A stretch of DNA of 64,000 nucleotides from Acidimicrobiia bacterium (GCA_041394025.1 JAWKJA010000002.1:979178-1043177), one strand, 5' to 3'. Shown: positions 31,621-61,158, counted from the first letter of the stretch. Numbers and translations are program-made. Notes: generated from the sequence alone by a model not told the origin.

Positions 31621-31633
31621 GGCGCTCCTCGGC

Positions 31634-32701
31634 TCACCCGAGAACGAGCTCGGCCATGGTGGCGAGGTCGTTCTCGTCGGCATGGATCGCGAGCTTGTCG
31701 GGGCCCGTCGGGATCAGCAAGGTCGTGACGCACGTCTCGCGCCAGCGCTCGAGGTCGTCGCGGATCTTCTCGGCCGGGCCGACCAGTGCCACGTCCTCGA
31801 CCATCTCAGCGGGCACCACGGCGAATGCCTCATCGTGCTCTCCGGCCAGATAGTGCTCGCGGATCTTTTCGGCCTCGGCTTCGTAGCCCATGCGGCATGC
31901 AAGCTCGAAGTGGAAGTTCCGCTCGCGAGCCCCCATCCCGCCGATGTACAGCGCGAGGAGTGGGCGCAACGAGTCGACCTGCGCCTCCACATCGTCGCCG
32001 ATGGCCGTGGGGATGCCCAAGACCACCTCGAAGTCGTCCTGGGTCCGGCGGGCGCCGGGTCGGGCGAAGCCCTCGGCGAGGCGCTCGCGGTACCACCCGT
32101 CGAGGCGGGTCGAGAGGAACATGGCGAACCAGCCGTCGGCGATCTCACCGGCAAGCGCCACGTTCTTCGGGCCCTCGGCGCCGAGAAGGATCGGCAGGTC
32201 GGTGCGCCGCGGGTGGATCGTCGACTTCAAGGCCTTCGCGAGGCCCGTGCCGCCGGGGTACGGCAACGGGTAGTGCTTCCCGTCGAAGCACACGGGCTCC
32301 TCACGCGCGACGATCCGCCGGACGATCTCGACGTATTCCCGGGTGCGCCCGAGGGGTGGTTCGAACGGCCGTCCGTACCATCCTTCGACGACCTGCGGTC
32401 CCGACACGCCCAGTCCGAGCACGAACCGACCGTCGCTCAGGTGGTCCATGGTCATCGCAGCCATCGCCGCTGACGTCGGCGGGCGGGCCGCCATCTGCGC
32501 GATCCCGGTCCCCAGGCGCATCCCCGGCACGACCGTGGTGAGCGCGGCCAGGGGCGTCAAGGCGTCGGAGCCGTACACCTCTCCCAGCCAGACCGACTCG
32601 TACCCGAGGTCGCAGGCCCTGCGCACGAGCGTGAACGTGTCGTCGGGTGGGCCGGACCCCCAGTACGTGAGGTGCAGACCGAGTTTCAGCTCGTGACCCA
32701 C
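31634..32701 (-). CDS. LLM-class (luciferase-like) F420-dependent oxidoreductase
   Basis: 355 aa. LGYESVWLGEVYGSDA, RFVLGLGVSGPQVVEGWYG and LGAEGPKNVALAGEIADGW motifs. GTG start 3 nt after the upstream stop. Confidence 0.85.
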   Translation of the reverse strand: MGHELKLGLHLTYWGSGPPDDTFTLVRRACDLGYESVWLGEVYGSDALTPLAALTTVVPGMRLGTGIAQMAARPPTSAAMAAMTMDHLSDGRFVLGLGVSGPQVVEGWYGRPFEPPLGRTREYVEIVRRIVAREEPVCFDGKHYPLPYPGGTGLAKALKSTIHPRRTDLPILLGAEGPKNVALAGEIADGWFAMFLSTRLDGWYRERLAEGFARPGARRTQDDFEVVLGIPTAIGDDVEAQVDSLRPLLALYIGGMGARERNFHFELACRMGYEAEAEKIREHYLAGEHDEAFAVVPAEMVEDVALVGPAEKIRDDLERWRETCVTTLLIPTGPDKLAIHADENDLATMAELVLG

Positions 32702-37729: not shown

Positions 37730-37758
37730 CGGTTCGCCCCTCTGCGTGGAGACTGCTG

Positions 37759-39984: not shown

Positions 39985-41103
39985 ATGGCTACGACGGCGG
40001 AGCCCGCATCCGACGACACACCGACGCGGCCGTCCGGGCCATCGCGCACCCCGGCCGCCGCTCGCGCGCTCGAAGGCAAGAAGGCCCGGCCGGTCCTGTT
40101 CTGGGCGGCACTCGGCACCTTCTTCGTCTGCCTCCAGTTCTACATCTACACACGGTGGATCGCGTCGAGCGACTTCACCCGTACCGACACGGGTCCCGAC
40201 CCGCTGCCGACGGCCACACAGGTGTGGGTGGTCGGCTTCCAGGTTCTCTCGGTCGTCCTCGCGCTGGTGTTCGTCGTGTGGGTCGTGCGGCAGAGCCTGC
40301 GGGAACGCCGTCTCAGCTTCGACGCCATGCTCGTGATCGCATGGATGTCGCTCTACTGGCAGGACCCGCTGCTCAACTACTTCCGTCAGCAGTTCTTCTA
40401 CAACTCCGGCATGATCAACTTCGGCTCGTGGACCGAGCAGATCCCTGGATGGATCAGCCCACAGGCGTCCCAGCTCCCCGAGCCGGTGCTGTTCGTCGGG
40501 GTCATCTACCTCTGGTTGGGTCCGCTCTCGGCGTTGATGGCATTCGGGATCATGAGGGCCGTCAAGCGTCGCAGACCCGAGACGTCGGTTTTCGCGCTCC
40601 TGGTCTCGGCCTGGGCCGTCCTGTTCTTCTGGGACATCCTGTGCGAGGTCATCTTCATCCGGACCGAGCTCTACGCCTACAACGGAGCCATTCACGGCCT
40701 GTCGATCTTCGGCGGGGAGAGGTACCAGTTCCCCGTGTACGAGGCGTTCTTCTGGCCGATGGTCTGGACGGCCATGGGAGCGATCCGCTTCTTCCGGGAC
40801 GATCGGGGCCGGACCTTCCTCGACCGCGGCCTCGATCGTGTGAGGGCGAGTAGGAGGAACACGACCGGCCTGCGGCTCCTCGCCATCATCGGATTCGCCA
40901 ACCTGGCGATGATCATCTACACGGTGCCGATCTGGTACTCGGGGATGCACGCCGGCCGTACGCCCGAGGGCTATCCGAGCTACCTCACGAACGAGATGTG
41001 CGGCGAGGGCACCGACTACGCCTGCACCGCGCCGGAGATCCCGATCCCGCTCCCCGGGTCGGGCAACGTGGACCCCGACGGTGGGCTCGTTCCGCCGTCG
41101 TGA
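39985..41103 (+). CDS. Polytopic membrane protein, probable AveC (spirocyclase) family
   Basis: 372 aa with several hydrophobic segments. The blocks FWAALGTFFVCLQFYIYTRW, LSFDAMLVIAWMSLYWQDPLLNYF and GERYQFPVYEAFFWP...IRFFRDDRG resemble my recollection of Streptomyces AveC. No alignment was run. Confidence 0.6.
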   Translation: MATTAEPASDDTPTRPSGPSRTPAAARALEGKKARPVLFWAALGTFFVCLQFYIYTRWIASSDFTRTDTGPDPLPTATQVWVVGFQVLSVVLALVFVVWVVRQSLRERRLSFDAMLVIAWMSLYWQDPLLNYFRQQFFYNSGMINFGSWTEQIPGWISPQASQLPEPVLFVGVIYLWLGPLSALMAFGIMRAVKRRRPETSVFALLVSAWAVLFFWDILCEVIFIRTELYAYNGAIHGLSIFGGERYQFPVYEAFFWPMVWTAMGAIRFFRDDRGRTFLDRGLDRVRASRRNTTGLRLLAIIGFANLAMIIYTVPIWYSGMHAGRTPEGYPSYLTNEMCGEGTDYACTAPEIPIPLPGSGNVDPDGGLVPPS

Positions 41104-41176
41104 TAGACCGACGCTCAATCAGTTAGTACAGTCACACGATTCGCGACCGGAGCCCGCGGCCTCGGGGGGAGACGAC

Positions 41177-42415
41177 ATGCACCGTTCGATTCGATTGTTG
41201 GTTGTTGTCGTCGGCCTCGCACTCGCCGCCGCGGCATGCGAGAACGGCTCGTCGTCGGACAGCGGCAACGGTGGCGATTCGGTCGACACCGCCGACCTCA
41301 CGGGCGCGCCCGTCAAGCTGCACGTCATCGTCGACGGCGGCGGCGACACGGGCCTCGAACTCAGCCGTGTGGGCGATGCCGCCCAGGTGGCTGCAGACGC
41401 CGTGAACGCCGATGGAGGCGTCCAGGACAGTCCCGTCGAGATCACGTTGTGCGAGGCCGGTTTCGACCCCAACGCCGCGGCCGGGTGCGCGCGGGATGCC
41501 GTCGACGACGGAGCCACGGCGGTCGTCGGGGCGTTCACGACGTCGGGTGACGCCTATGTCCCGCCACTCGAGGAGGCGGGAATCCCGACGGTCGCCCCCT
41601 TCGCCATCAGCTTCAGCGAGTTCAGCAGCGAGTTCTCGTACCCGATCATCGGCGGCGCCCCTGCCACCACGGCCGGGATGGGCGCGCAACTCGCCGACGG
41701 CGACGCCGAGAGGATCAACGTGAGCTTCCTCGACATCGCCGAGGGCGCTCAGGCGGGAGTACTCCTCCAGGAGGGGCTGACGCCCCGGGGCCTCGAGATC
41801 TTCTCCGAGACCCCCGTGCCCGTGGAGACACCCGACCTGTCGTCGGTCATCGCCGATGCGACCGACGGATCCGACTCGGTGGCCCTCGTCCTGAGCGAGG
41901 ACGACGCTCCGCGCTGGATCCAACAGGCGAGCGAACAGGGTGTCGACCAGACGATCGCGTCGACCTCGGCGGCGATCACCCCGGATGCGGCATCGACGCT
42001 CGGTGCCTCGGCTGAAGGTGTGCTGGTGACGTCGAACTTCATCCCGATCACCGAGAGCGATGACCCCGGCGTGGAGAACTTCCTCGCCGAGGTCGACGAG
42101 TACGACTCCGATCTCGTGATCGACGACGGCTCGATGAACGGCTGGGCCGGCGTCCACGTCATCGCCGATGTCCTCGCTGACGCCACGGGTGACGTCTCCG
42201 ACCCCGCAACGCTCATCTCGGCGCTCGGTACGGCGACGAACGTGGAGACCGGCATCACGCCGCCGCTCGACTTCGCCACACCTCCCGAACCGATCTTCGG
42301 CGGCGCCATCTCGAGGCTGTTCAACCCCGACGTCCTGTACGCCGTGATCGAAGGTGGGGAGATCGTCCTCACGACCGACGAGCCCGAGTTCATCAACCCG
42401 TTCGTGGCCCCGTAG
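41177..42415 (+). CDS. ABC transporter substrate-binding lipoprotein (LivJ/Peripla_BP_6-like), paralog A
   Basis: ATG at 41177. The signal peptide has the lipobox LALAAAAC. AVVGAFTTSGDAYVPPLEEAGIPTV. Confidence 0.8.
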   Translation: MHRSIRLLVVVVGLALAAAACENGSSSDSGNGGDSVDTADLTGAPVKLHVIVDGGGDTGLELSRVGDAAQVAADAVNADGGVQDSPVEITLCEAGFDPNAAAGCARDAVDDGATAVVGAFTTSGDAYVPPLEEAGIPTVAPFAISFSEFSSEFSYPIIGGAPATTAGMGAQLADGDAERINVSFLDIAEGAQAGVLLQEGLTPRGLEIFSETPVPVETPDLSSVIADATDGSDSVALVLSEDDAPRWIQQASEQGVDQTIASTSAAITPDAASTLGASAEGVLVTSNFIPITESDDPGVENFLAEVDEYDSDLVIDDGSMNGWAGVHVIADVLADATGDVSDPATLISALGTATNVETGITPPLDFATPPEPIFGGAISRLFNPDVLYAVIEGGEIVLTTDEPEFINPFVAP

Positions 42416-45187: not shown

Positions 45188-45897
45188 GCACACTGATCGC
45201 GGCGCGGAAGATGTCGGCCGGCTACGGGAGTCTCGCCGCCGTACGCGACCTCGACCTCCACGTCGACGAGGGCGAGGTGGTGGCCCTGCTCGGTCCCAAC
45301 GGCGCCGGCAAGACGACGACGATCATGACGCTCGCCGGTGTGCAGCAGCCCCTGTCGGGCACGGTCGAACTGTACGGCGAGGCGACCCGGAAGCCGCTGC
45401 ACCACCGGGCCCGCCGGGGGCTGGCGCTCGTCCCCGAAGAGCGGTCCGTGTTCATGCAGTTGTCGGCCGGCGGAAACCTCCGACTCGGCCGGGGTGCGGT
45501 CGCCGACGCCCTCGACCTGTTTCCCGAGCTCGAGCCCCTGTTGCGGCGCAAGGCGGGCCTCCTGTCGGGAGGTGAGCAGCAGATCCTGACACTCGCCCGT
45601 GCCCTCGCGTCCGAACCCCGTATCCTCCTGGCCGACGAGCTCTCCCTCGGTCTGGCACCGCTCGTGGTGCGACGCCTCATGGCGGAGGTCCGGGCCGCGG
45701 CCGACCACGGCGTGGGGGTGCTCCTCGTGGAGCAGCATGCCCGGCAGGCTCTCGAAGTTGCCGACCGCGCGTGCGTCATGCGGCGAGGACGGATCGAGCT
45801 CCAGGGATCGGCGCACGAGCTCGCGGAGCAGATCGGCGACATCGAGCAGTCGTACCTCGCCGGCCCCGAGGTCGACGACACCGGCTCGAAGCGCTGA
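45184..45897 (+). CDS. Branched-chain-amino-acid-type ABC transporter ATP-binding protein (LivF-like)
   Basis: 237 aa. GPNGAGKTT, LSGGEQQ and LLADELSLGLAP motifs. Its start overlaps the upstream stop (ATGA). Confidence 0.9.
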   Translation: MSTLIAARKMSAGYGSLAAVRDLDLHVDEGEVVALLGPNGAGKTTTIMTLAGVQQPLSGTVELYGEATRKPLHHRARRGLALVPEERSVFMQLSAGGNLRLGRGAVADALDLFPELEPLLRRKAGLLSGGEQQILTLARALASEPRILLADELSLGLAPLVVRRLMAEVRAAADHGVGVLLVEQHARQALEVADRACVMRRGRIELQGSAHELAEQIGDIEQSYLAGPEVDDTGSKR

Positions 45898-45912: not shown

Positions 45913-46881
45913 CTAGGGGCCGGGTAGCTCGAGGTCGTAGAGCGCCGGCCCGAACAGGTCCTTCCCGGGTTGCGCGGGATCGATCCCACGTTCCTCTCCC
46001 GCGTCAGCGGTCATCTCGAGCACCGCCGCCAACGCCTGGAGCCCGGCCACGGGCCCCTGGCCGGTGAGGCGCACCCGCCCCCGTGGAATCCGGTCCGGCA
46101 CGAGGTCGACGGTCCGGTCAGCCAACGACCTGTCGATCTCGGACTCGAGCGTCACCATCCCGGTTCGCGCTCCCTGCCTCTCGAGCCAGAGGTAGCGACC
46201 GTGGGCGAGATCGCGGAAGTCGCAGCGTGACACCGTTCCGAGTGCCGCTTCAGTGAAATTCGACTCGAGGCCCGACGCTGCAGCGGAACCTTCGGCGCCG
46301 TGGAGAGCGACGAGGACCTCCCTGCCCCACAACTCCCCCAGCGACGCGATGTCGCCCCGTACGGGTCCTATCAGGTCTTCGTAGCGCCGGGGCAGGTCGG
46401 CACCGACGGCCTTGGCCGTGATGACCGACGGCACGAGTTGCGATGCACACGCAACGAAGCTCTCCTCCCCGTATCGGTCGAGGAGGATCAGCGACTCGCC
46501 GGCGGAGCGTACGGCGTGCGCGAGCTCGCTGTCGGGCTCGCCGCACAGGACGACGACTTCCGTGCCGACCCACGTCGCGACTCGCTCCCAGGCCGCGAGG
46601 ATGTCGGTGTTGGATCCCGCGGCACTGACGAGGACCACGCGGGTCCCGCGCGGTGGCGGCGGGCTCCGGACGACTCCGAGGGGCGAGAGAGGCGCCGTGA
46701 CGGCGCCCGACGCCAGCCGATGGATGTCCGCGATGTAGCGGGCGACGGTGCCCGAGCCCCCGGAGCCGACGGCCAGCAGGGGCCACGGCGCCGGACGGAG
46801 CACACGGTCGTCGACATCGGCCGCGAGAGCCACGGCGTATGCCTCGGAGAGGGTTGCCAGTTCGTCGCGGTACGAACGCAT
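45913..46881 (-). CDS. Tandem SIS-domain protein (GlmS C-terminal/FrlB/AgaS-like sugar-phosphate isomerase or deglycase)
   Basis: 322 aa. LLAVGSGGSGTVARY (SIS GxGxS-like) and a second-half GAEGSAAASGLESNFTEAAL. By-eye assignment only. Confidence 0.5.
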   Translation of the reverse strand: MRSYRDELATLSEAYAVALAADVDDRVLRPAPWPLLAVGSGGSGTVARYIADIHRLASGAVTAPLSPLGVVRSPPPPRGTRVVLVSAAGSNTDILAAWERVATWVGTEVVVLCGEPDSELAHAVRSAGESLILLDRYGEESFVACASQLVPSVITAKAVGADLPRRYEDLIGPVRGDIASLGELWGREVLVALHGAEGSAAASGLESNFTEAALGTVSRCDFRDLAHGRYLWLERQGARTGMVTLESEIDRSLADRTVDLVPDRIPRGRVRLTGQGPVAGLQALAAVLEMTADAGEERGIDPAQPGKDLFGPALYDLELPGP

Positions 46882-48214: not shown

Positions 48215-48319
48215 GGGGCCCCTCAAACCTCTAGCGAATACGACTGATTGTACGCTATCGTCTCACGGCGGTCGCGTGCAGGTGACACGCGGCGAATCGA
48301 GACCCGGGGAGATGACCCG

Positions 48320-49571: not shown

Positions 49572-50501
49572 GTGACGTCGGCGCCCAGCCTGCGGGACGC
49601 GGGAAAGGTCTACGTCGAGGTCGGTCTCAACGAGGTTGCGTCGAAGGATCGCAACGCCAACATCCCGTACGGCCCCGACGAAGTGGCGGCGGACGCGATC
49701 GCGTGCGCGCAGGCCGGCGCATCCGTGATCCACTTCCACGCCCGCCACGGCGACGGTACGCAGGCGTGGACCGACGACGGTGTCTACCGGCGGGCGATGG
49801 AGCTCATCGCCGAGGAGGCGGACCTCGTCACCTACCCCACCTATCCGCCCCGCGTCGACCGGGAGGAGCGGTACCGCCACCTGTGGGCGCTGGCCGACGA
49901 GCCCTCGACGGCCCCGCTGGAGCTGGCGCCGATCGACATCGGCTCGCGCAACGTGTCGTTGTGGGAGCCAGACAAGCAGCGGTTCGCGCCCCTCGGGATC
50001 CTGCCGGCCGAGAGCCAGGTGGCGCTCAACCCTCCCGACGAGATCGAGTGGGTCATCGCCCGGGCCGCCGAGCGTGGACTGCATCCCACGCTGGGCGTCT
50101 TCGACATGACGTATCTTCGGTACTCGATCCACGCGCTCTGGGCGGGCCTGCTGAAACCTCCTCTGCTCCTCAAGTGGTTCCTGTCGGAACGGTGGGTCGG
50201 CGGCACGTTCCCCACCCCCGCGGGACTCGACGCCTACCTTTCCCAGGTTCCCGACGGCGTGGATCACGAGGGGCTCGTGGTGCCCTACGCGATGTCGAAA
50301 GCCGACGACGTCGAAACCCTGTGGAGGCACGGCCTCGAGCGCGGTCAGAACATCCGCGTCGGTATCGGCGACAACCCGGAGGCCTTTGCCACATCCACGA
50401 ACACCGAGCTCGTGGAACGCGCCGTGGAGCTCATCGCCGGTTACGGCCTGAGACCGGCGACGGCCGACGACGTCAGGAACCGCCTCGGCCTCCGGGTTTG
50501 A
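49572..50501 (+). CDS. Beta-keto acid cleavage enzyme (BKACE/DUF849, 3-keto-5-aminohexanoate cleavage enzyme family)
   Basis: 309 aa. GLNEVASK...PYGPDEVAADAIACAQAGASVIHFHAR is the BKACE N-terminal signature. GTG start 7 nt after the SBP stop. Confidence 0.8.
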   Translation: MTSAPSLRDAGKVYVEVGLNEVASKDRNANIPYGPDEVAADAIACAQAGASVIHFHARHGDGTQAWTDDGVYRRAMELIAEEADLVTYPTYPPRVDREERYRHLWALADEPSTAPLELAPIDIGSRNVSLWEPDKQRFAPLGILPAESQVALNPPDEIEWVIARAAERGLHPTLGVFDMTYLRYSIHALWAGLLKPPLLLKWFLSERWVGGTFPTPAGLDAYLSQVPDGVDHEGLVVPYAMSKADDVETLWRHGLERGQNIRVGIGDNPEAFATSTNTELVERAVELIAGYGLRPATADDVRNRLGLRV

Positions 50502-50505: not shown

Positions 50506-51294
50506 TCAGTGAACGTCGGTCACGTAGGCGTCGACCATCTCGAGGAGTCCGGTCTCCAGACCGGGATCGTCGGTCAGGGGCCCGGTGACGGCGGCGGTAG
50601 CCGCCTCGCGTGGCGGTACACCGGCCGCGATCAGCCGACCCGCCGCGATGAGCACCCGGGTGGAAGCCACCTCCCGTAGACCGCTGCTCTCGAGCTTCCG
50701 GATGGCCTGCGCCAGTGCCACGAGCTCGGCCGGCCGGGTGCCGTCGAGGCCCGTCTCGTGCGCGACGACCTTCTCCTCCACCTCGGGCGGCGGGAAGCCC
50801 AGCTCGATGGAGATCATGCGCTGGCGTGTCGAGTCCTTGAGATCCTTCAGGACGCTCTGGTAGCCGGGGTTGTAGCTGACCACGAGCCCGAAGCCGTCGG
50901 CCGCACGCAGCGTCTCCCCCCGTCGCTCGAGCGGCAGCTCCCGACGGTGGTCTGCGAGGGGATGCAGCACGACGGTGGTGTCCTGGCGGGCCTCGACGAT
51001 CTCGTCGAGGTAGCAGATCGACCCCGACCGGACGGCGGTCGTGAGTGGGCCGTCGACCCACTCGGTGTCCCCACCCTTGAGCAGGAAACGACCGACCAGG
51101 TCGGCGGCCGTGAGATCCTCGTGGCAGGCGACCGTGATCAACGGGCGACCCACATCATGCGCCATCGCTTCGATGAACCGCGTCTTGCCGCATCCGGTGG
51201 GACCCTTGAGCAGGATGGTCAAACCCTGTTCGTGGGCGGCCACGAAGATGCGCTCCTCGTTTCCCACGGGCTCGTAGTAGGGGCGTCCGGGCAC
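50506..51294 (-). CDS. CbbQ/NirQ/NorQ-type MoxR-class AAA+ ATPase
   Basis: GTG at 51294, 1 nt after the upstream stop. LLKGPTGCGKTRFIEAMA (Walker A), ICYLDEIVEA (Walker B), VVSYNPGYQ and LKDSTRQRM. 262 aa. Confidence 0.85.
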   Translation of the reverse strand: MPGRPYYEPVGNEERIFVAAHEQGLTILLKGPTGCGKTRFIEAMAHDVGRPLITVACHEDLTAADLVGRFLLKGGDTEWVDGPLTTAVRSGSICYLDEIVEARQDTTVVLHPLADHRRELPLERRGETLRAADGFGLVVSYNPGYQSVLKDLKDSTRQRMISIELGFPPPEVEEKVVAHETGLDGTRPAELVALAQAIRKLESSGLREVASTRVLIAAGRLIAAGVPPREAATAAVTGPLTDDPGLETGLLEMVDAYVTDVH

Positions 51295-51295: not shown

Positions 51296-54013
51296 TCAGG
51301 CGCCTTTCTCGACGACACGGATCGTGCCGGTGTCGCCGTCGACCTCCACAGTCTGGCCGTCGTGCAACACGCGCGTGGCGTTCTCGGTGCCGACAACGCA
51401 CGGCACGCCGAACTCCCGGGCCACGACGGCCGGATGCGACAGAACGCCCCCCACGTCAGTCACGACGGCCCCCGCGAAGGCGAAGAGCGGGGTCCAGCCG
51501 GTGTCGGTGATGTGGGCGACGAGGACGTCGCCCGGGTCGAGATCGTCACTGACGTCGGTGAGAATGCGGACCCGACCTCGCACCGTTCCCGGTGACGCCG
51601 GTATTCCGCTCACGGCGGAGCCCTCAGCCGTGTCGGGATCGTCGGATTCGTCGACCCCGGCCGCGTCGGTGTCCCAGATGCCGGTGAAGTGATTGGGCAT
51701 CCTCAGCGCGGCGAGCCGCTTCCGCTCCTCGCGTCGGCGGGCGATGGTGTCGGCGCCGACCGCCGTGGACGCGAGCAGCTCCCGGTACGACAGGTAGAAG
51801 ACGTCCGATGGGTCGACGAGGGCGCCGAGAGCCACCAGCCTCCGGGCGCGCTCCCGAACAGCACGTCGCAATCCATGGGTGAGTCGGACGATCGGGTCAC
51901 GGGCCTGCTCGCGCTGACGCATGGCGTTGTTCATCATCCGTGCGGCGATCCGTTCCCGTAGTGCGCGCCGAGTCGCGGGCGGCGTGGAGGCAGGGGTCGG
52001 CGCTTTGACAGCCTTGATGACCGAATCGAGGAGGAGAACCGGCCGATCCGAGAACATTTCGTTCTCGAGCTCGGTCTCGCCGGGTCCACGGTGTCCGTAG
52101 CGTTCGACCAGGTCCTCGAACCACGTAGCGAACTCGCTGAGGCCGTCGACGGGTTCGCCGTCGTCTCCTGCACCACCCGTCGGGCGGTCTCCGGGTCGGA
52201 TGGCTGCCAGCACCTCCTCCGGTGAGCGTGTCGTGAGGAACGAGCCGAGCTGCCGACACCGGGCTGCCAGGTCTGCGAGTCGCCTCACACCGACCAGGGC
52301 ACCGGCACTCTGGAGGTCGTCGACCCCGCCGCGCTCGAGGTCGAACGCCTCGACACCCGAGATCTTCTCCGCCGCCGACTGTGCGCCGGCGGCGATCATG
52401 TTGGAGATGCACGCCACGTTCCAGGCCTGGCACAGCTCGTCGTGCAGGAGCTCGATGTGGGCGAGGAGCTCGGCATCCTCTTTGGCGCCCAACTCGTCGG
52501 GCGATGCGGGAAGCGTCGCGGCCTCGCGTTCGGAACGTCCGATCTCCCCTCGGAACCCCAGCAGCTTCGGGCCCGTGTGCGCCAACAGACGCAACGAGTC
52601 GAGTGCCTCCGACAGAGACATCGACGACGCCTCCCGGTTCGCGTGGTGGATACCCAGGAACTGCTCGTCGATGTCCTCGGGCGACATACCCGGCATCGCG
52701 GCGGCCATCTCGCGAACGACCGAGACGTTGGCGTAGATCCTGTGACCGAAGCTTCCGGCGCCCCGACCGCGCTGGGCATGCGCGATCTCGTCTCTCAGGT
52801 CGAGGAAGTCGACCATGCCGTCGCTCGCGGCGAGCATGGCGTCGAGAGAAACCGACAGCGACAGCGGTGTCATCGGGCCCGGAAACGCCTCGGAAAGGTT
52901 GGTGGCCGAGTAGGTGGGATACGTCGGGTCGATCGGGCTGTCGAACTCACCTCTGAGCTCTGCGGGTGCCGCGTCGGCCAGCCCGGCGTCGGTCGACGCA
53001 TCCGATCCATCCGGACCGTCATACGGAGGAAGATCGCGTGGAGGGTTCGTATCGACGTACGCAAGGCGCCAGGGGAGGTCGATGCGGTGAGGACCGATGT
53101 AGACGGTACGCGAGAGCACCCGGGCCAGGTCTTCGAGAGCCTCGCGCCCGGTCCACGCGCACTGGAAATCCCACTCCTCCCGCAGCCGCTTGTCGTCGAG
53201 CACGGGCATCCACCGGTACCCGGCGAGTGACGGAGGGTCCATCTCGATCAGGTTGTACTTCCAACCGATTTCGACCACCCGCTGCATCGCGGACAGCGGA
53301 ATCTCAACGACCTTCTTGCCCAGAATCCCTGCTATCTCGGGAATGGTCATCCCGCCGTCGGGCGGCGCCACGTTCACGACCCCGGTGCGGTCGCTCAAGA
53401 TCGCCTCGGCGTGGAACCGGCCGATGTCCTCGTCGTGCATGAACTGCCAGACCGGCGTTTCTCCTTTCGCCGACATCAGAACGGGAGTGGCGAACATGCG
53501 GAACTCGTAGTTGTCGAGATGTCGACCTGCGGCCGGTGAGCTGCGGGTCACGACGGACGGGACACCTGCGTCGGCGATGAGTCCCTCCACCTCGGCCTTG
53601 TGCGCCGCGTAGTAGATGTCAGGTGCCGGGCGAAGCGGATCCGACTCGGTGAACACGGGCGGGTTGTCGGGATGGGATCCGTAGACCGTGGCCGACGACG
53701 AGAACACGATGCGGGGGCAGCCTGTTGCCTCCATGGCCCGCAGCACGTTGGTGCTCCCACCGATGTTGACGTCGCGGGTCTCCTCCTCGGTGCGAAGCGG
53801 CGTGACAGCCCATGCCAGGTGCACGACCACATCGGCGCCGACCATTGCCTTCTCGACGGCCTCGGTGTCACGGATGTCGGCGCTGACGAACTCCACTCCG
53901 GGGACGGTGACATCGCGTCGCGCCATGGCCACGACGTCCACGCCTTCCCGGACGAGACGCGTGCAGATGTCACGGCCGAAGACGCCGCTGGCACCCGTGA
54001 CGAGGACCCTCAT
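51296..54013 (-). CDS. Tri-partite fusion protein: extended-SDR (NAD-dependent epimerase/dehydratase-like), rifampin-phosphotransferase-like helical region and PEP-utilizer swivel phosphohistidine domain
   Basis: 905 aa. The N-terminus has MRVLVTGASGVFG and YYAAHK (YxxxK). The middle has TNLSEAFPGPMTPLS. The last 103 aa carry GIPASPG...VTDVGGVLSHPAVVAREFGVPCVVG, with the His codon at 51434-51436. Confidence 0.8.
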   Translation of the reverse strand: MRVLVTGASGVFGRDICTRLVREGVDVVAMARRDVTVPGVEFVSADIRDTEAVEKAMVGADVVVHLAWAVTPLRTEEETRDVNIGGSTNVLRAMEATGCPRIVFSSSATVYGSHPDNPPVFTESDPLRPAPDIYYAAHKAEVEGLIADAGVPSVVTRSSPAAGRHLDNYEFRMFATPVLMSAKGETPVWQFMHDEDIGRFHAEAILSDRTGVVNVAPPDGGMTIPEIAGILGKKVVEIPLSAMQRVVEIGWKYNLIEMDPPSLAGYRWMPVLDDKRLREEWDFQCAWTGREALEDLARVLSRTVYIGPHRIDLPWRLAYVDTNPPRDLPPYDGPDGSDASTDAGLADAAPAELRGEFDSPIDPTYPTYSATNLSEAFPGPMTPLSLSVSLDAMLAASDGMVDFLDLRDEIAHAQRGRGAGSFGHRIYANVSVVREMAAAMPGMSPEDIDEQFLGIHHANREASSMSLSEALDSLRLLAHTGPKLLGFRGEIGRSEREAATLPASPDELGAKEDAELLAHIELLHDELCQAWNVACISNMIAAGAQSAAEKISGVEAFDLERGGVDDLQSAGALVGVRRLADLAARCRQLGSFLTTRSPEEVLAAIRPGDRPTGGAGDDGEPVDGLSEFATWFEDLVERYGHRGPGETELENEMFSDRPVLLLDSVIKAVKAPTPASTPPATRRALRERIAARMMNNAMRQREQARDPIVRLTHGLRRAVRERARRLVALGALVDPSDVFYLSYRELLASTAVGADTIARRREERKRLAALRMPNHFTGIWDTDAAGVDESDDPDTAEGSAVSGIPASPGTVRGRVRILTDVSDDLDPGDVLVAHITDTGWTPLFAFAGAVVTDVGGVLSHPAVVAREFGVPCVVGTENATRVLHDGQTVEVDGDTGTIRVVEKGA

Positions 54014-54040: not shown

Positions 54041-55177
54041 CTACTTCTCTCCTGCCGTGTCGGCCAGTGCCTCGAGGCGTTCGACCGTGTCGGCGAACCC
54101 CTCGATGAGTTCCAGCATCACTCGCCGGGCGGGCTTCACGGAATTCATACTGCCCACGACCTGACCCACGAAGTAGTTGGCGAGCTTCTCGGCGCCCGAA
54201 CCCGGTGTCGTCGAGGCACGGGCGATGCGAGCGCGTGCATCGTCGACCAGCATCGGCTGGAGCGGCATCGGTAGAGGGCCGGGCGACTCATCAGACTCCC
54301 ACTCGTCGGTCCACGCGGTGCGCAGCTGCCGGGCCGGCTTGCCGGTGATGGACCGCGAACGCACGGTGTCACCACTCCCGGCTGCGAGGAACTTGTCCTT
54401 GACGACCGGGTGGGTCTCGGCCTCCTCGGTGGTCAGCCAGACCGAGCCGGTCCACACTCCCTCGGCACCCAGTGCCAGGGCCGCAGCAACCTGCCGGCCG
54501 TCGCCGATGCCACCGGCCGCGAGCACCGGGACGGGGGCCACCTCGTCGACGACCTCGGGAACGAGGACCATCGTCGAGATCGTTCCCGTGTGCCCACCGG
54601 CCTCGTATCCCTGGGCGACGATGATGTCGGCACCGACCTGGGCGTTGCGCGCGGCATGCGCCCGGGTCCCGGCAAGTGCGGCGACCGGGATGTCGCGTGC
54701 GTGCGCCTCCTCGATCATCATCGGTGGCGGTGGGCCGAGGGCGTTGGCGATCAGACGGATCGGGTGTGCGAAGGCGATGTCGGCCAGTTGTCCCACCCGC
54801 TCGTGGGCGACAGTCATCTTCGCGAAGCTCTGCTCGACGACACCCTCGGGTATCTCCGGCACCTCGTAGCGCTCGAGGAGATCGCCGAGAAACGCCCGGT
54901 GCTCATCGGGAATCAGCTCCGCGAGGGCCGTCGGGTCGAGGTCGGATTCGTCGCCCACGTAGCTGGCGGGGAAGAGCAGGTCGACGCCGAACGGTCGGCC
55001 CCCGACCTCACCCTCGATCCAGTCGAGCTCCACCTCCAGCTCCTCGGGAGTGAGAGCGGTGGCACCGAGAACGCCCATGCCACCGGCGTTGGTGACCGCC
55101 GCCACCACGTCACGGCAGTGGCTGAACGCCAGGATCGGGAACTCGATACCCAGCATGTCGCGGACTGTCGTGTTCAC
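54041..55177 (-). CDS. Nitronate monooxygenase/FMN-dependent NAD(P)H oxidoreductase (NMO family)
   Basis: 378 aa. LGIEFPILAFSHCRDVVAAVTNAGGMGVLG, and GYEAGGHTG and AAGGIGDGRQ motifs. GTG preceded by GGGAGG. Confidence 0.85.
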   Translation of the reverse strand: MNTTVRDMLGIEFPILAFSHCRDVVAAVTNAGGMGVLGATALTPEELEVELDWIEGEVGGRPFGVDLLFPASYVGDESDLDPTALAELIPDEHRAFLGDLLERYEVPEIPEGVVEQSFAKMTVAHERVGQLADIAFAHPIRLIANALGPPPPMMIEEAHARDIPVAALAGTRAHAARNAQVGADIIVAQGYEAGGHTGTISTMVLVPEVVDEVAPVPVLAAGGIGDGRQVAAALALGAEGVWTGSVWLTTEEAETHPVVKDKFLAAGSGDTVRSRSITGKPARQLRTAWTDEWESDESPGPLPMPLQPMLVDDARARIARASTTPGSGAEKLANYFVGQVVGSMNSVKPARRVMLELIEGFADTVERLEALADTAGEK

Positions 55178-55256: not shown

Positions 55257-56792
55257 ATGACCGACCCCCGCAGCCTCACCCTCGGCGACGTCCTGCGCGA
55301 GCACCGTCGGAGCCGCCCAGGGAAGACAGCCACCGTCGACGGGGATGTGCGGCACACATGGCCCGAGCTCGACGACCGCGTCAACCGGCTCGCCAACGCC
55401 CTGAACGCCGACGGCTTCGCTGCGGGAGACCGGATCCTGTGGCTGGCGCAGAACTCGTCGCGTCTTCTCGAAGCGCTCCTCGCTACCGCGAAGCTCGGCG
55501 GGATCTGCTGTCCGGTCAACTGGCGCCAGTCCCCCGAGGAGCTGACCTTCGTGATCGACGACGTAGAGGCTCACACGGTCCTGTGGCAGGAGGCAGAGAT
55601 CGGCGACTCCGTGCGTGTGGGTCGTGAGCGCGCGTCGTCATCGTCACGCTGGGTACAGCTGGACTCTGCCACCGATCCGAACTCAGACGAGTACGAGGCT
55701 CTCCTGGGCGACGCGTCTCCGACTGACCCGGACCTCGACGTCGACCCAGCCACCCCCGTTCTCGACGTCTACACAGCGGCGTTCGAGGGACGGCCCAACG
55801 GCGCCCTGCTCGACCACACGGCCATCGTGACCCAGAGTGTGCTCATGGCGATGCTCCAGGGCGTCGACCACGAGTACCGGTATCTCAACTGCGGGCCGAT
55901 GTTCCACGTCGGTACGCTCATGCTCACCCTCGCCACCTTCCAGATGGGTGGTGTGAACGTCTTCACCCCGCGTGTCGACGCGGAGGAGCTCTGCCGTCTC
56001 ATCGACTCCGAGCGGTGCACCGGGGCCTTCCTGCGCCCGCCGACGATCGCCCAGATCGTGGAGGTCAACGCCGATCGACGCTACGACCTCTCGTCGCTGC
56101 GGGCCAATCCCGGTCCGGACGCCTGGAACGAGATGGTCACCCTCGACACATCACCGCGCGCCCGCCACCGTGGTGGCTACGGCCAGACCGAGGTCATGGG
56201 GCTCATCACGTTCGGGGCGCTCGGTCCCGGGACCGGCAACGCCGGACGTCCCTCACCCTTCGCTCAGGTCAGGATCGTGGATCCCGAGGGAAACGAGGTC
56301 GCCACCGGGGAGACCGGTGAGATCGTCGTGCGCGGCCTCACCGTCATGGTCGGTTACGACCGCCGGCCCGAGCTCAACGACCGCCGGCAGCGCGGTGGGT
56401 GGCACCACACGAACGACCTCGGTGTCCGCGAGGCCGACGGGACGATCCGCTTCGTCGGACCCATGACCCGGATCGTCAAGTCGGCGGCGGAGAACATCTA
56501 CCCCGCCGAGGTCGAGGCGGCCCTGAAGCGCCACGACGCCGTGGCCGACGCAGCGATCATCGGTGTGCCCGATGAGAAGTGGGAGCAGAGTGTGAAGGCC
56601 ATCATCGTTCTGGAGGATGGCAGGTCGGTCACCGCCGAGGACCTCATCGAACACTGTCGCTCGACGATCGCGTCGTACAAGAAGCCGCGCACGGTGGAGT
56701 TCGTCGACGCACTGCCGAAGCGGGGGAACGAGACCGACTACGACGCCCTCGACGCGCAGTTCGGCGGCGGCGGCTACCCCGGTGGGGACTGA
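55257..56792 (+). CDS. ANL-superfamily acyl-CoA synthetase/AMP-dependent ligase
   Basis: ATG at 55257. GYGQTE, GEIVVRG, WHHTNDLG, ENIYPAEVE and SYKKPRTVEFVDALPK motifs. The P-loop position reads YTAAFEGRPNGA instead of the TSGTTGxPKG type. 511 aa. Confidence 0.85.
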   Translation: MTDPRSLTLGDVLREHRRSRPGKTATVDGDVRHTWPELDDRVNRLANALNADGFAAGDRILWLAQNSSRLLEALLATAKLGGICCPVNWRQSPEELTFVIDDVEAHTVLWQEAEIGDSVRVGRERASSSSRWVQLDSATDPNSDEYEALLGDASPTDPDLDVDPATPVLDVYTAAFEGRPNGALLDHTAIVTQSVLMAMLQGVDHEYRYLNCGPMFHVGTLMLTLATFQMGGVNVFTPRVDAEELCRLIDSERCTGAFLRPPTIAQIVEVNADRRYDLSSLRANPGPDAWNEMVTLDTSPRARHRGGYGQTEVMGLITFGALGPGTGNAGRPSPFAQVRIVDPEGNEVATGETGEIVVRGLTVMVGYDRRPELNDRRQRGGWHHTNDLGVREADGTIRFVGPMTRIVKSAAENIYPAEVEAALKRHDAVADAAIIGVPDEKWEQSVKAIIVLEDGRSVTAEDLIEHCRSTIASYKKPRTVEFVDALPKRGNETDYDALDAQFGGGGYPGGD

Positions 56793-59416
56793 CCGTCGTC
56801 CACCACCCGCACGATCCCCGCATCGCCGTCGACCTCGACGATCTGGCCGTCGGTGAGCCGTCGCGTCGCGTCGGCGGCACCGACGACGCAGGGAATCCCG
56901 TACTCACGGGCGACGATCGCCGGGTGCGACATCAGCCCGCCCACATCCGTGACGACGGCAGATGCCATCGCGAAGAACGGAGTCCAACCGGTGTCCGTCA
57001 CGTGGGTGACGAGGACGTCTCCGGGCTCGAGTTGATCGCCGGAGTCGACGATCCGCGCCGGTCCCTGGGCCCGCCCCGGCGCGGCTGCGATCCCGCGCAC
57101 CTCACCGCACTCGGTTGACTCGTCGGGCTCGGGTGTCGCCGACCCTCCGAGCGCCGCCTCGGACCATGAGCGGGTGAACATCGACGGCATCGAATAGTCA
57201 CGCAACCGTTCCCGCTCGGCGCGGCGACGTACGACACGGTCAGCTGCATCGGAGGGCGGGGTGAACGCCTCGTCGACCGCCAGGTACCAGATGTCGTCGG
57301 GCTCGGGGAGCGTCCCACCGGCTGCCAGGCGACGCCCCTGCTCACGCAGGGCCTTGCGCAACTCGTGTGTGAGGCGCACTGTGGTGTCCCGAATGTCCTC
57401 ACGCATCGACAGGAGCGAGGTTGCCAGACGTTCAACCGCTCCCCGACGACCGGGCGACAGGGTCCCGCTCGATGGAGTGTCCGCCGTCTTCACGATCACG
57501 TCGAGAAGTCGGTCGGGGGTGTCGTCGAAGACATCGTTGGCCAGTTCGAGCTCACCCGGTCCACGGTGACCCACTTGCCGCCGCAACTCGGCGAACTCCC
57601 GGGCGAACCCGGGATCCCGGTCGTCGAGACGCTTCACGCGCTCCTCTGGTGGGGTGTCGTCCAACCAGCCTTTCAACGCGGGCGCTGCGCGGAGATGGTC
57701 GGCCAGCACTTCCACGCCTGCGATCGCGTTGGCACTGGCCAGACCGTCGTCGCCGACATGCAGCGCACCCACGGCCTCGGGGCCGCGGAGTCGCTCGACA
57801 GCGGACACGGCGGCACCGGCGACAGGGTTGGCGATGATGACGGCGGCCCAGCACTGGGCGAGCTCGTCGCGCAGCACGCCGACACGCGCCTCCAGTCCGG
57901 CATCGCTGAGCTCTTCGAGCACATCTGTGCCCACGACCAACGTGTCGACCCGCCCCGCCAACCGCCGTCCCTCACCGCGGAGCCCGATCACGGGCGGTGC
58001 CGTGCGCCCGACGATACGAAGCGCCGTGAGCACCTCGCGGGGAGTCATCGCGGGCCGCTCGAAGTCCTCCGGCACGGGAATTCCGAGGTACTGGCTGTCC
58101 ATGTCCTCGGGCGTGATCCCCGGGAGCCCCTCGGTCGTCTCACGGGCGAGCGACACGTTGAGGTATATGTGGTGCCCGAACACGGACACCATGCGGACCG
58201 TCGCCTCGTGACGAACCTCGCCCGACATTCCCAGGAAGTCGACGAGATAGGTCTGACCCGCCCGTAGCGCGCTGATCGACACGGTCACCGACATCGGTGT
58301 GAGCGGCCCGGGAAACGCCTCCGACAGATTCGTGGCGGTGAAGACGTCGAAGTCGGGGTGAACCGCGTCGTCGAACTCCCCCGCCACCCCCTCGGGAGCC
58401 GCGGGAAGGAGGTCACCGCCGTCGAGACGCGGCCAGTTGCCCGGTGGTGGCTCCACCCACGGCAGACGCCGCCGCCGTGGAACTCGGTAACGACCCACGT
58501 AGGTGCTGCGCGTGAGGGAACGTGCGGCGTCACGGGCGGTCTCGGCGCTGGTCCACGCGCACCGGAAGCCCCATTCTTCGCGCAGACGCGTGGTGTCGAC
58601 GACGGGCATGTACCGGAGCCCGTCGTAGGCAGCCGGATCCATCTCGGTGACACCCAACGCCGCCATCACCCCGACCATCCCGGTGGCGACACATTCGGGG
58701 AGCCGCGGCGTCGGCCGCTCGACAAGTTCGCCGAGCTCCTCGGGGCTCAGGACGTCATCGGCGGCCAGGTTGACCGTGCCGGTCCGGGGGGAGATGGCAG
58801 CCTCGGCGAGAAAGCGGCCGACGTCCTCCTGGTGGACGAGCTGCCAACGGTTCGTGTCACCCCGCACCGCAGGGAACACGGGTCCTGCAAACTGCTGTGT
58901 GACCGCGTTGTCGATTCCGCGCCCCAGTGTCGCCGCCACCCTCGCCACGACGGCGTCGACGTCTGCGGCAGCGATGAGATCCTCTACCTCCATCTTGTGG
59001 TGCGCGTACTCGAAGGCGGGATCAGGTCGCGGTTGGTCGTCTTCCCGGAAGGGCGCGGGATGGTGACGCGCACTCCCGTAGACGGTGACCGAAGAGGCGA
59101 ACACCAGACGCCGGCAACCGGTGCTCTCCATGGCGGCCAGGACGTTCGCGCTCCCACCGACATTGATGTCACGGGTGTCGGCGGTCTCGCCGGCGGCACT
59201 CATCATCCAGGCCAGGTGCACAACGGCGTCGCATCCCAGGAGCGCTGACGCCACACTGGCGGCGTCGGCAACGTCCCCGGCGATGAAGCCGACTCCCGGC
59301 GGGAGGGACACCGGCTCGTGGCGTGCCAGAGCGACCGGATCGGCACCCAGCCGGGTGAGCCGACGGGCAACGGCGCGACCGAACGCCCCCGTTCCACCCG
59401 TTACCAGGACCCGCAT
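56774..59416 (-). CDS. Second SDR / RPH-like / PEP-utilizer swivel fusion protein, paralog of 51296..54013
   Basis: ATG at 59416. MRVLVTGGTGAFG, EYAHHK, TNLSEAFPGPLTPMS and VTDVGGLMSHPAIVAREYGIPCVVG (His codon 56924-56926). 880 aa. Its start lies 16 nt inside the upstream VWA gene. Confidence 0.8.
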   Translation of the reverse strand: MRVLVTGGTGAFGRAVARRLTRLGADPVALARHEPVSLPPGVGFIAGDVADAASVASALLGCDAVVHLAWMMSAAGETADTRDINVGGSANVLAAMESTGCRRLVFASSVTVYGSARHHPAPFREDDQPRPDPAFEYAHHKMEVEDLIAAADVDAVVARVAATLGRGIDNAVTQQFAGPVFPAVRGDTNRWQLVHQEDVGRFLAEAAISPRTGTVNLAADDVLSPEELGELVERPTPRLPECVATGMVGVMAALGVTEMDPAAYDGLRYMPVVDTTRLREEWGFRCAWTSAETARDAARSLTRSTYVGRYRVPRRRRLPWVEPPPGNWPRLDGGDLLPAAPEGVAGEFDDAVHPDFDVFTATNLSEAFPGPLTPMSVTVSISALRAGQTYLVDFLGMSGEVRHEATVRMVSVFGHHIYLNVSLARETTEGLPGITPEDMDSQYLGIPVPEDFERPAMTPREVLTALRIVGRTAPPVIGLRGEGRRLAGRVDTLVVGTDVLEELSDAGLEARVGVLRDELAQCWAAVIIANPVAGAAVSAVERLRGPEAVGALHVGDDGLASANAIAGVEVLADHLRAAPALKGWLDDTPPEERVKRLDDRDPGFAREFAELRRQVGHRGPGELELANDVFDDTPDRLLDVIVKTADTPSSGTLSPGRRGAVERLATSLLSMREDIRDTTVRLTHELRKALREQGRRLAAGGTLPEPDDIWYLAVDEAFTPPSDAADRVVRRRAERERLRDYSMPSMFTRSWSEAALGGSATPEPDESTECGEVRGIAAAPGRAQGPARIVDSGDQLEPGDVLVTHVTDTGWTPFFAMASAVVTDVGGLMSHPAIVAREYGIPCVVGAADATRRLTDGQIVEVDGDAGIVRVVDDGQSPPG

Positions 59417-61158
59417 CTCTTCTCCCGTCGTTGGTCGGCCGACCGTATCGCCTGCCGGAAGAGACGGCCGAGGTCGCCGCGTATCATGTCGACATCGGGC
59501 GCACGGGCGTGCGCCGACGTGCCGAAGACGCGTTGCAGCGCGGCGGCATCGGTCCGACCTCCGATCGACAGGCACAGGCAGCCGATTCCGTTGCGTCGCG
59601 CCTCGGCGAGCGCGCGACGGGCATCCGCCTCCCCGTAGGTTCCCTCGTACCCGTCGTCGTAGGCGAAGCCGTCCGAGAGGACGACGAGGAGGCGTTGCTC
59701 CGTCCCACCGTGTGTCTCGAGGAGGTGGGATCCATGGCGCACGGCGGCACCGAGACGCGTGTACGAACCCGGCTCGAGAACAGCGAGACGGCGGAGCGTC
59801 TCGGCACCGTAGTGGTCGTCGAAGGTCTTGACCCGCACCATGTGGACGGCGGAACGACCCCGGGACCGGAAGCCGTAGGCCGCCACGCGGTCTCCCAGAC
59901 TCGCCAGTGCGTCGAGCAACCTGGCCGCGGCGGCACGCTGGTGGTCGTGGACCGAGCGGCCGGCGGGGCTGCGCTCCGCTCCCGACCCCGAGATGTCGAG
60001 GAGTACCAGGACCGACAGGTCGCGCCGGGTCCGCAGGTTCTCGAGGTACACGTCCTCGTCGATCTCCTGGGGCACGTCGACGTCACGGGCCGCAGCGTGA
60101 CCGACGGCCAACTCCACCTGCCGGTCGACGACCGCGTCGAGATCCAGATCGTCGCCCTGCGGTCGACGCCGGTTTCGCTGCAAGCCGACGCCCAGGCGCG
60201 CCAGGCGCCTGCGCAGCACATCGTCGGACGCCGATCCGAGGTCGCGGGGAGGCCGGTCGTGCGGCGGCTCCACCTCCACGACGGTGCACCAGCCTGGCCT
60301 GTAGCGCCTCTTGTGAGCGTTCCACTCGGGGTACACGGCGTGCCCCGGGACGAGCGGCTGCTCGGCCACCGTGGGATCGACGGGGACGAGCGACACCACG
60401 GCGTGCTTGCCCCGCCGCGCGACCGCGCGGCCCCTGCCCGTGGGCAGTTCGGCACCCGCCGGGCCGGAGCCCTCCTCGCGTCCGAGCCCCAGCACCTTGT
60501 GGAGAAGCCTCGCCACCGGCCCCCGGCCACCGACCGGCGCGCTGAACTTCTCGGCCACCCTTCCCGGGTCCTGAGTCTCCTCGCTCTCGTCGAGATCGGG
60601 CAGGTCGTCGTCGCGTGGACTCCTCCGGAGATCTTGGCGGGTCGGGACCCCACCGTCGTCGCCGCGGTCGCGACGCAGCACACGGCGCGGGCGAATGGTC
60701 CCCCACTCCGGTGGTGGGTCGGGCACCGTCGGGTCGCCCAGCGCGGTCTCGAGTGACTCCTCGGGGCTCCGTGTGACGGGGATGCCCTCGGGCGTCGGGA
60801 TTCGCACACCGGGAGGGAGTCCGCCCCCGGCCGCCAAGCGGCACGACTCGAGCGCCAGGTAGCGGCTCGTGACCCGGGGGTGCCCCGACAGGCGTTTCAG
60901 GATCGGGCGGTCCAGGGAGTGACCTCCCAGCAGTGCCGCCTGTGCCGCGACCTCCGCGCGGGTGCCCGGCCACCCGGCGGCAGGGTCGGGCGACACGAAG
61001 ATCGTCGCTCCGTCGGTGAAGGGTGCCTCCCCCTCCCGATGGGGCGCGACCTCGACCGGGCGGCCGGCGAGCGCCGACGCCAGGAGCCGGTAGCGCTCGC
61101 TCTCGACCCCGGGCCGCGCTCGCTCGGGGATATCGTCGGTGTCGTCGGATACGGGCAC
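59401..61158 (-). CDS. NorD/CbbO-type von Willebrand factor A (VWA) domain protein
   Basis: 585 aa. YPEWNAHKRRYRPGWCTVVE (the NorD/CbbO YxEWD...WC block) and a C-terminal VWA domain with MIDAS LLDISGSG. GTG start. Confidence 0.8.
   Translation of the reverse strand: MPVSDDTDDIPERARPGVESERYRLLASALAGRPVEVAPHREGEAPFTDGATIFVSPDPAAGWPGTRAEVAAQAALLGGHSLDRPILKRLSGHPRVTSRYLALESCRLAAGGGLPPGVRIPTPEGIPVTRSPEESLETALGDPTVPDPPPEWGTIRPRRVLRRDRGDDGGVPTRQDLRRSPRDDDLPDLDESEETQDPGRVAEKFSAPVGGRGPVARLLHKVLGLGREEGSGPAGAELPTGRGRAVARRGKHAVVSLVPVDPTVAEQPLVPGHAVYPEWNAHKRRYRPGWCTVVEVEPPHDRPPRDLGSASDDVLRRRLARLGVGLQRNRRRPQGDDLDLDAVVDRQVELAVGHAAARDVDVPQEIDEDVYLENLRTRRDLSVLVLLDISGSGAERSPAGRSVHDHQRAAAARLLDALASLGDRVAAYGFRSRGRSAVHMVRVKTFDDHYGAETLRRLAVLEPGSYTRLGAAVRHGSHLLETHGGTEQRLLVVLSDGFAYDDGYEGTYGEADARRALAEARRNGIGCLCLSIGGRTDAAALQRVFGTSAHARAPDVDMIRGDLGRLFRQAIRSADQRREKRCGSW

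Follow-up and report, generated by a model that had tools for sequence, protein, structure and literature searches.

The question raised by this locus is what two diverged copies of one fusion protein do in a single gene cluster: are they the halves of an obligate hetero-oligomer, or do they carry out two separate activities? The cluster lies in a 64,000-nucleotide stretch of DNA from an Acidimicrobiia bacterium (GCA_041394025.1, JAWKJA010000002.1:979178-1043177), the whole of which was analysed and is hereafter called the window. Each of the two proteins, copy 1 and copy 2, combines an extended short-chain dehydrogenase/reductase (SDR) with a substrate-binding domain and a swivel phosphohistidine domain resembling those of rifampin phosphotransferase (RPH). 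A first-pass annotation of the sequence had noted that one copy adjoins a gene labelled Q and the other a gene labelled O/D, and had suggested either an obligate hetero-oligomer or two sequential activities. We find that two separate activities fit better, as the number of family genes per genome (1-4), the varied mixes of subclades, the separate transcription units and the variable spacing of the genes all speak against an obligate complex. The reading we prefer, with a probability of roughly 0.55, is that the copies are ancient paralogs of the Rv2047c type, each a complete bifunctional reductase/phosphotransferase whose histidine is loaded in trans, and that they serve as subfunctionalised isoenzymes, the Q and D genes being co-expressed members of the same cluster.

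Both open reading frames (ORFs) lie on the minus strand (Table 1). The ORF and translation of copy 2 (880 aa) were verified; the gene starts with ATG 59416, preceded by GGGAGAAGAG, a Shine-Dalgarno sequence, and the open frame extends 5' of this codon, up to GTG 59575. Copy 1 (905 aa) is 100% identical to the database protein P0029, named as coming from an Acidimicrobiia metagenome-assembled genome (MAG). BLASTP aligns the two copies end to end and collinearly with 406/908 identities (45%, E=0), and the sequence blocks quoted in the first-pass annotation (GxxGxxG, YxxxK, TNLSEAFPGP and SHPA) are all found in each, so that its description of a second, diverged and collinear copy of the fusion holds over the full length. 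At the nucleotide level the codon-aligned identity is 56.5% and the longest identical run only 14 nt; identity at third positions (42.5%) is about what composition alone would give at ~68% GC, i.e. the synonymous sites are saturated. Judged by these values, the duplication is old and shows no trace of recent gene conversion, in agreement with the earlier statement that it is not recent.

In Pfam searches both copies match the NAD-dependent epimerase/dehydratase family (extended SDR) at the N-terminus (E ~1e-25) and the mobile domain of phosphoenolpyruvate (PEP) utilisers, PF00391, at the C-terminus (E 2.5e-25 and 2.5e-24), and the precomputed Pfam annotation places PF27448 (Rph_4th) in the central part of both; PPDK_N/ATP-grasp is absent from the Pfam matches of either protein. 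The AlphaFold2 (AF2) model of copy 2, calculated from a 61-sequence alignment, is confident (predicted local distance difference test, pLDDT, 91; predicted template modelling score, pTM, 0.92). Foldseek aligns this model with the RPH structures 5hv1, 5fbt and 5fbu over ~600 columns (5hv1: E 4e-21), and its first ~330 residues match GalE-type extended SDRs (TMt 0.75-0.79). A profile of the family also finds the RPH sequences in the Protein Data Bank (PDB) with an E-value of 1e-53, the GxRxxGE block and the swivel motif being common to both. The predicted architecture is that of an extended SDR followed by an RPH-type substrate-binding domain and a swivel phosphohistidine domain, with the SDR in place of the leading ATP-grasp domain of RPH.

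The residues expected at each of the sites are strongly conserved. In copy 2 numbering, G7/G10/G13, R32, S108/S109, Y137 and K141 of the SDR domain, as well as N363/E366, G616, R618, G619, P620 and E622 of the substrate-binding domain, do not vary among 61 homologs and occur in both window copies; H617 and G621 are retained in at least 90% of the homologs. Both copies thus keep the SDR Tyr/Lys pair and the swivel histidine, as had been claimed. The invariant Arg following β-2 suggests, by the general rules for SDRs, that NADP(H) would be the cofactor. In the swivel domain T807/D808, G826/G827, S830 and H831 are invariant and T823 is conserved in at least 90% of the homologs; the motif, T-x-x-G-G-x-M/L-S-H in both copies, is of the T/SxxGGxxxH type, with a Met two positions and a Ser one position before the histidine (-2 and -1), features that the HpeHI paper likewise describes for RPH and the phenolic dikinases. 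Ahead of it lies the motif R-E-x-x-R (R672-E673-x-x-R676 in copy 2, R701-E702-x-x-R705 in copy 1), in which E673, together with the nearby D677, is invariant, and in which R672 and R676 are retained by at least 90% of the homologs. It may correspond to R666/E667/K670 of RPH, where the second phosphotransfer depends on R666/E667 (together with K670).

The only full-length match among the NCBIfam models, and also the best one, is NF004520/PRK05865 ("sugar epimerase family protein", 854 positions), which we take to correspond to Rv2047c of Mycobacterium tuberculosis (854 aa). It aligns with residues 1-873 of copy 2 and 1-903 of copy 1 over profile positions 1-839 of 854, a collinear match over the full length; the NCBIfam models for RPH, PEP synthase, PigC and RedH match the last ~200 residues only. 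Because the NF004520 scores (436.4 and 484.5 bits) are far under the equivalog cut-off of 1509 bits, the window copies are family-level relatives of Rv2047c and not its orthologs. Papers on Rv2047c describe the same two end domains, and the gene is in an operon with pks12; its product has been proposed to bring about the reductive release of the mycoketide chain and its phosphorylation. The window differs in that its context is catabolic-looking and without a polyketide synthase (no such domain was found among the scanned window genes and no window ORF exceeds 933 aa), and in that it has two copies, whereas Rv2047c is treated as a lone gene in these papers. One mention of Rv2047c in the literature turned out to be a typographical error for an Sdh gene.

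The copies resemble RPH (5hv1, 5fbt, 5fbu) in the substrate-binding and swivel-His domains, in the motifs GxRxxGE and T-x-x-G-G-x-M-x-H and possibly in an R-E-x-x-(R/K) motif; however, the sequence identity is only 16-19% and nothing indicates a rifamycin substrate. Single-chain RPH and PEP synthase carry the ATP-grasp domain in the same chain, whereas the N-terminal 330 aa of the window copies are predicted to fold as an SDR. The two-component dikinases HpeHI, PpsAB and CreHI, in which an RPH-like substrate-plus-swivel protein is served by a separately encoded ATP-grasp protein, offer another parallel: the C-terminal ~530 aa of the copies correspond to HpeH, PpsA and CreH (RPH-like substrate domain plus swivel His), a Ser precedes the His as in PpsA and CreH, and the ATP-grasp domain lies outside the substrate/swivel polypeptide. 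Unlike these systems, the window copies have an N-terminal SDR and no HpeI-like ATP-grasp gene, either adjacent or elsewhere in the window, and phenols are unlikely to be their substrates.

In a neighbour-joining (NJ) tree of 76 family proteins, which is distance-based and gives support values for the tested splits only, the copy-1 orthogroup is recovered in 100/100 and the copy-2 orthogroup in 99/100 bootstrap replicates, and a clade joining the two in 0/100; each group is nearer to different subclades from Mycobacterium, Nocardioides and Nocardia. Members of the copy-2 orthogroup are 50-80% identical to copy 2 and 45-48% to copy 1, and those of the copy-1 orthogroup are 55-65% identical to copy 1. 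The duplication is therefore ancient, and the copies are co-inherited, as both orthogroups occur together in all the related Acidimicrobiia-type assemblies open to judgement (L numbers denote loci), namely the window, the 2.46-Mb contig with L001/L005, L006, the MAG with L004 and L008, the 24.6-kb contig with P0008/P0028, and L035. The first-pass annotation regarded both copies as conserved, and indeed neither shows pseudogenisation or relaxed selection: by the NG86 method, copy 2 and an 80%-identical ortholog give a dN/dS of 0.14 (0.14 for the adjacent acyl-CoA synthetase gene, 0.17 for the VWA gene), and copy 1 and a 65%-identical ortholog give 0.27, with saturated dS, which points to purifying selection on both. 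Relaxed selection in copy 2 had come into consideration because the long ORF looked odd in third-position GC; the GC content at its three codon positions (0.75/0.52/0.81) is normal and ruled this out. The copy-2 ortholog of the Acidimicrobiia MAG MFD05684.bin.2.108 (L035:807-3457) is broken across three reading frames, either by sequencing or assembly errors or because it is a genuine pseudogene.

Beyond this lineage the number of family genes varies. Across 47 genomes recovered from a species-representative collection, the count, a lower bound drawn from at most 80 listed loci, is one copy in 21 genomes, two in 17, three in 6 and four in 3. The family comprises at least five paralog subclades, which occur in the combinations B+E, C+D, D+E, B+D+E, B+C+E and C+D+E, with no genome having two members of one subclade. 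It is thus an old multi-paralog family of Actinomycetota, usually found inside large catabolic-looking clusters, and variable copy numbers and subclade combinations of this kind are what one would typically see with isoenzymes that differ in specificity; a fixed A/B complex would not typically show them. The pair in the window is an ordinary example of this Rv2047c-type family and introduces no new principle.

According to the isoenzyme reading, the SDR site would reduce or oxidise a carbonyl or hydroxyl group on a lipid-like or acyl substrate, after which a phosphoryl group would be handed on from the swivel histidine (copy 2, H831; copy 1, H860) to a hydroxyl of the substrate in the RPH-like pocket, probably with the aid of the R-E-x-x-R motif. 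An ATP-grasp protein encoded at an unlinked site would load the histidine in trans, by analogy with HpeHI, PpsAB and CreHI. The two copies would act on different substrates or on different steps of one pathway in the catabolic-looking cluster, and a substrate hydroxyl of this pathway would be transiently phosphorylated, which parallels the role proposed for Rv2047c. The Hpe pathway follows a kinase-plus-phosphatase logic, to which the proposed pathway would be parallel.

Loading in trans is suggested because there is no ATP-grasp domain in the two proteins or in the window: a Pfam scan of essentially all plausible genes of the 64-kb window revealed no PPDK_N/ATP-grasp match, and comparison of the unannotated ORFs 45913..46881 and 30748..31683 with PDB sequences found no ATP-grasp partner. 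By eye only, the former of these ORFs may resemble an SIS-type protein. Among the relatives, no ATP-grasp gene is recorded within 10 kb of the family genes in L001 and L002. The family also has HpeH-like variants without the SDR (520-600 aa; L014:17552-19114, L070:17553-19295 and L059:4300-6102) and variants without the first ~150 residues of the SDR (~745 aa; L075-L077, ~9794-12031). No HpeI-like ATP-grasp gene was found beside the SDR-less variants L014 and L059, where there is just a weak DUF7065 match at L059:6038-7123. If the histidine is loaded by ATP, the ATP-grasp partner would thus have to be unlinked. A candidate in M. tuberculosis is ppdK (Rv1127c), which presumably encodes a truncated, ATP-grasp-bearing dikinase and could be the trans-acting partner of Rv2047c. 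In a M. tuberculosis screen ppdK, pks12 and rv2047c were all more strongly required at high mycobactin, which we read as a hint in this direction and not as a result.

Several points weigh against the reading we prefer. The ATP-grasp partner in trans is hypothetical and was searched for within the 64-kb window. The evidence on Rv2047c consists of a genetic phenotype and a proposed role, and no member of the family has an established biochemical function; our literature search found no characterisation of the fusion family. The R-E-x-x-R motif of the family agrees with the positional offset of the NCBIfam alignment of RPH, but the HMMER alignment is gapped and ambiguous there, and the NJ tree is distance-based, with support values for the tested splits only. 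Furthermore, the two copies always co-occur in this lineage and are translationally coupled to D (its stop overlaps the start of copy 2 by 16 nt) and to Q (its GTG start is 1 nt past the stop of copy 1), which would fit a physical complex too. Finally, HpeH dimerises through its helical substrate-binding domain, which makes copy 1:copy 2 heterodimers structurally plausible by analogy.

These last observations, together with the purifying selection on both copies and the finding that no genome has two members of the same subclade, would be accommodated by an obligate heteromer, in which the copy 1-copy 2 hetero-oligomer would be the sole active form. We consider it unlikely. Strict 1:1 co-occurrence fails across the family, as many genomes have a single member and others at least three or four, and the members that do occur together come from different subclades in different genomes; Rv2047c, too, is discussed as a single gene. 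Each copy has a complete set of catalytic residues, and the two orthogroups are equally conserved, with only 14/864 aligned positions being conserved but different between them. The two genes are neither adjacent nor, judging from their arrangement, co-transcribed: the window has one unit consisting of D and copy 2 and another consisting of the NMO gene, copy 1 and Q, split by the acyl-CoA synthetase (ACS) gene on the opposite strand. The order D...copy2-ACS-NMO-copy1-Q recurs in close relatives, in which the orthologs of the two copies are 6-8 kb apart with variable genes in between (P450, CoA-transferase, PaaK-like ligase), and mycobacterial paralogs are 13-65 kb apart. The ligase, a 426-aa protein resembling PaaK and F390 synthetase, is encoded between NMO and the copy-1 ortholog at L001:19431-20711 and L006:17722-18975; the window lacks it, and NMO there directly adjoins copy 1.

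[quoted passage not shown] Both genes resemble NorQ/NorD and CbbQ/CbbO in their domains and motifs (Table 1), which are intact, so that they look functional; Q matches NorQ (9qhd_A, E 4e-93) and CbbQ (5c3c, E 1.5e-87) in the PDB, and residues 262-571 of D match NorD (9qhd_G, E 7e-35), although its first 260 aa bear no relation to the solved NorD structures. No cNOR (NorCB) or Rubisco client is encoded among the scanned window genes, the order D...copy2...copy1-Q is kept in L001/L005, L006, L004 and L080, and the overlap of D with copy 2 and the 1-nt gap between copy 1 and Q would likewise fit this reading.

However, in the window D and Q are ~8 kb and four genes apart, whereas in NorQ/NorD-type pairs elsewhere they are adjacent. 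Full-length homologs of D (47-50% identity) are widespread in Actinobacteria, and in 3/3 contexts (Mycolicibacterium aubagnense, Pseudofrankia and the metagenome contig L083) D is followed in order by Q, Peripla_BP_6, AveC_like, SDR, aldehyde dehydrogenase (ALDH) and P450 genes, with no fusion gene within 10 kb; in L083 the periplasmic binding protein and AveC_like are called as a single 811-aa gene. Conversely, neither Q nor D lies within 10 kb of any of the ~70 family genes at loci from Mycobacterium, Nocardia and Nocardioides. In L001 and L006 there are ~5 kb of other genes between D and copy 2, and the window retains the AveC-like and binding-protein genes 9 kb away. We therefore regard the fusion proteins as quite unlikely clients, and the weight placed by the annotation on the position of one copy next to Q and of the other next to O/D is not sustained. 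Since D and Q adjoin each other elsewhere without a fusion gene and the fusion genes occur elsewhere without Q or D, the bracketing of the paralogs is lineage-specific and looks as if four genes had been inserted between D and Q. What it supports is co-expression within a single pathway, not a one-to-one pairing of either paralog with Q or D. The actinobacterial D-Q cassette, of which the literature search likewise found no characterisation, suggests that the NorQD-type chaperone serves a client not yet described, which may be the AveC-like protein.

A third alternative takes up the missing ATP-grasp domain from the other side: the proteins would not be ATP-dependent kinases at all, but the swivel histidine would shuttle phosphate between two small molecules, or remove it, the enzymes then being phosphotransferases, mutases or phosphatase-like; or else it would be charged at the SDR domain, and no ATP-grasp partner would exist. 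It agrees with the lack of ATP-grasp domains in cis, in the window and beside the examined relatives, the SDR-less variants included, with the ability of HpeH alone to transfer phosphate between phenolic substrates, and with the occurrence of HAD and His_Phos_1 phosphatase-like genes near mycobacterial family genes, which suggest phosphorylated intermediates. Nonetheless, the Ser/Tyr/Lys residues of the SDR show the conservation seen in ordinary redox SDRs, net phosphorylation is needed for the role proposed for Rv2047c, and the mycobactin screen groups rv2047c with ppdK as well as pks12. These points make this alternative very unlikely in our view. Moreover, we know of no precedent for the loading of a swivel histidine at an SDR site.

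Just as improbable is the proposal that a split NorQ/NorD-type AAA+/VWA machine acts on a heteromeric SDR-phosphohistidine pair in this Acidimicrobiia lineage, which, if true, would constitute a new client class for MoxR-VWA chaperones, in which the chaperone might make up for the absent ATP-grasp domain, either driving the swivel cycle or gating it.

As autonomous isoenzymes, which is the reading we retain, the two proteins represent a dikinase-type phosphate carrier in which the ATP-binding domain has been exchanged for a dehydrogenase. Most noteworthy at the locus are this design, which lacks an ATP-grasp domain, and the separation of the NorQD pair; the age of the multi-paralog family together with the lack of a nearby ATP-grasp partner sharpens the question of which protein loads the histidine and on which substrates the enzymes act. 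The coordinates of the features are collected in Table 1.

Table 1. Features of the locus and of related loci (window positions unless a locus or residue number is given).
Feature	Position	Strand	Remarks
Copy 2, full gene	56774..59416	-	Pfam Epimerase 3-206 and PEP-utilizers 797-867; AF2; Foldseek
Copy 2, extended-SDR domain (aa 1-315)	58472..59416	-	G7xxG10xxG13, R32 after β-2, S108/S109, Y137xxxK141
Copy 2, predicted RPH-type substrate-binding domain (aa ~350-760)	57137..58369	-	TNLSEAFPGP (362), GHRGPGE (616), R672-E673-x-x-R676-D677
Copy 2, predicted swivel phosphohistidine domain (aa 770-875)	56792..57109	-	T823-D-V-G-G-L-M-S-H831
Copy 2, H831 codon	56924..56926	-	
Copy 1, full gene	51296..54013	-	same three-part architecture as copy 2
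Copy 1, swivel histidine H860	51434..51436	-	equivalent of copy 2 H831
GxxGxxG	aa 7 in both copies		
YxxxK	aa 137 in copy 2; aa 135 in copy 1		
TNLSEAFPGP	aa 362 in copy 2; aa 371 in copy 1		
GHRGPGE	aa 616 in copy 2; aa 640 in copy 1		
SHPA	aa 830 in copy 2; aa 859 in copy 1		
D, NorD-type VWA protein (585 aa)	59401..61158	-	Pfam VWA_2 and VWA_CoxE; MIDAS D-I-S-G-S ... T ... D intact
Q, NorQ/CbbQ-type MoxR AAA+ ATPase (262 aa)	50506..51294	-	Pfam AAA_5 and CbbQ_C; Walker A GPTGCGKT, Walker B YLDE
NMO/FabK-like FMN oxidoreductase	54041..55177	-	heads the NMO-copy1-Q unit; also found, conserved, upstream of the copy 1 orthologs
Acyl-CoA synthetase (ACS)	55257..56792	+	between the paralogs; orthologous loci have it at the same place (identity 62-83%)
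BKACE (beta-keto acid cleavage enzyme)	49572..50501	+	
AveC-like protein	39985..41103	+	
Peripla_BP_6 binding protein	41081..42415	+	
D-Q cassettes in other genomes	L081:10001-19808; L082:10001-18520; L083:10001-19633		

The window as a whole is rich in genes of catabolic type. It encodes four cytochromes P450, two luciferase-like monooxygenases, three amine-oxidase-like flavoproteins, Amidohydro_2 proteins, acyl-CoA dehydrogenases, an enoyl-CoA hydratase, a hotdog hydratase, an ALDH and several SDRs, in addition to the BKACE, NMO and ACS listed in Table 1, two Liv-type uptake systems and TetR regulators. The family loci of mycobacteria contain similar sets of genes together with DUF35/thiolase genes and the HAD and His_Phos_1 genes mentioned above, and BKACE recurs at 3-6 kb from family genes at many of them. 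An unannotated family of ~335 aa (e.g. L002:12643-13650), with no match to Pfam or to PDB sequences, adjoins 37/96 family genes in Mycobacterium, Nocardia and Nocardioides loci (L018, L019, L020, L024, L046, L050 and others) and has paralogs of its own in the same clusters; tblastn and a custom hidden Markov model did not find it in the window, and it is missing from the close relatives as well.

Some genes of the window have features of their own. A single 898-aa ORF at 42491-45187 fuses two BPD_transp_2 stretches (branched-chain-type ABC permease) to a LivG-type ATPase, and a separate LivF-type ATPase is encoded at 45184-45897. The three amine-oxidase-like flavoprotein genes are paralogous (36398-38026, 37759-39144 and 46907-48226); the first two ORFs, taken at their longest limits, overlap by ~270 nt, and at least one of the starts is probably further downstream. 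Finally, beside and within the catabolic cluster lie nucleoside-salvage genes (3196-4200, 6535-7161, 11374-15389 and 35215-36363), which encode two IU-type nucleoside hydrolases, a uracil phosphoribosyltransferase (UPRTase), a cytidine deaminase, two adjacent proteins resembling S-adenosylhomocysteine (AdoHcy) hydrolase and an adenosine deaminase.

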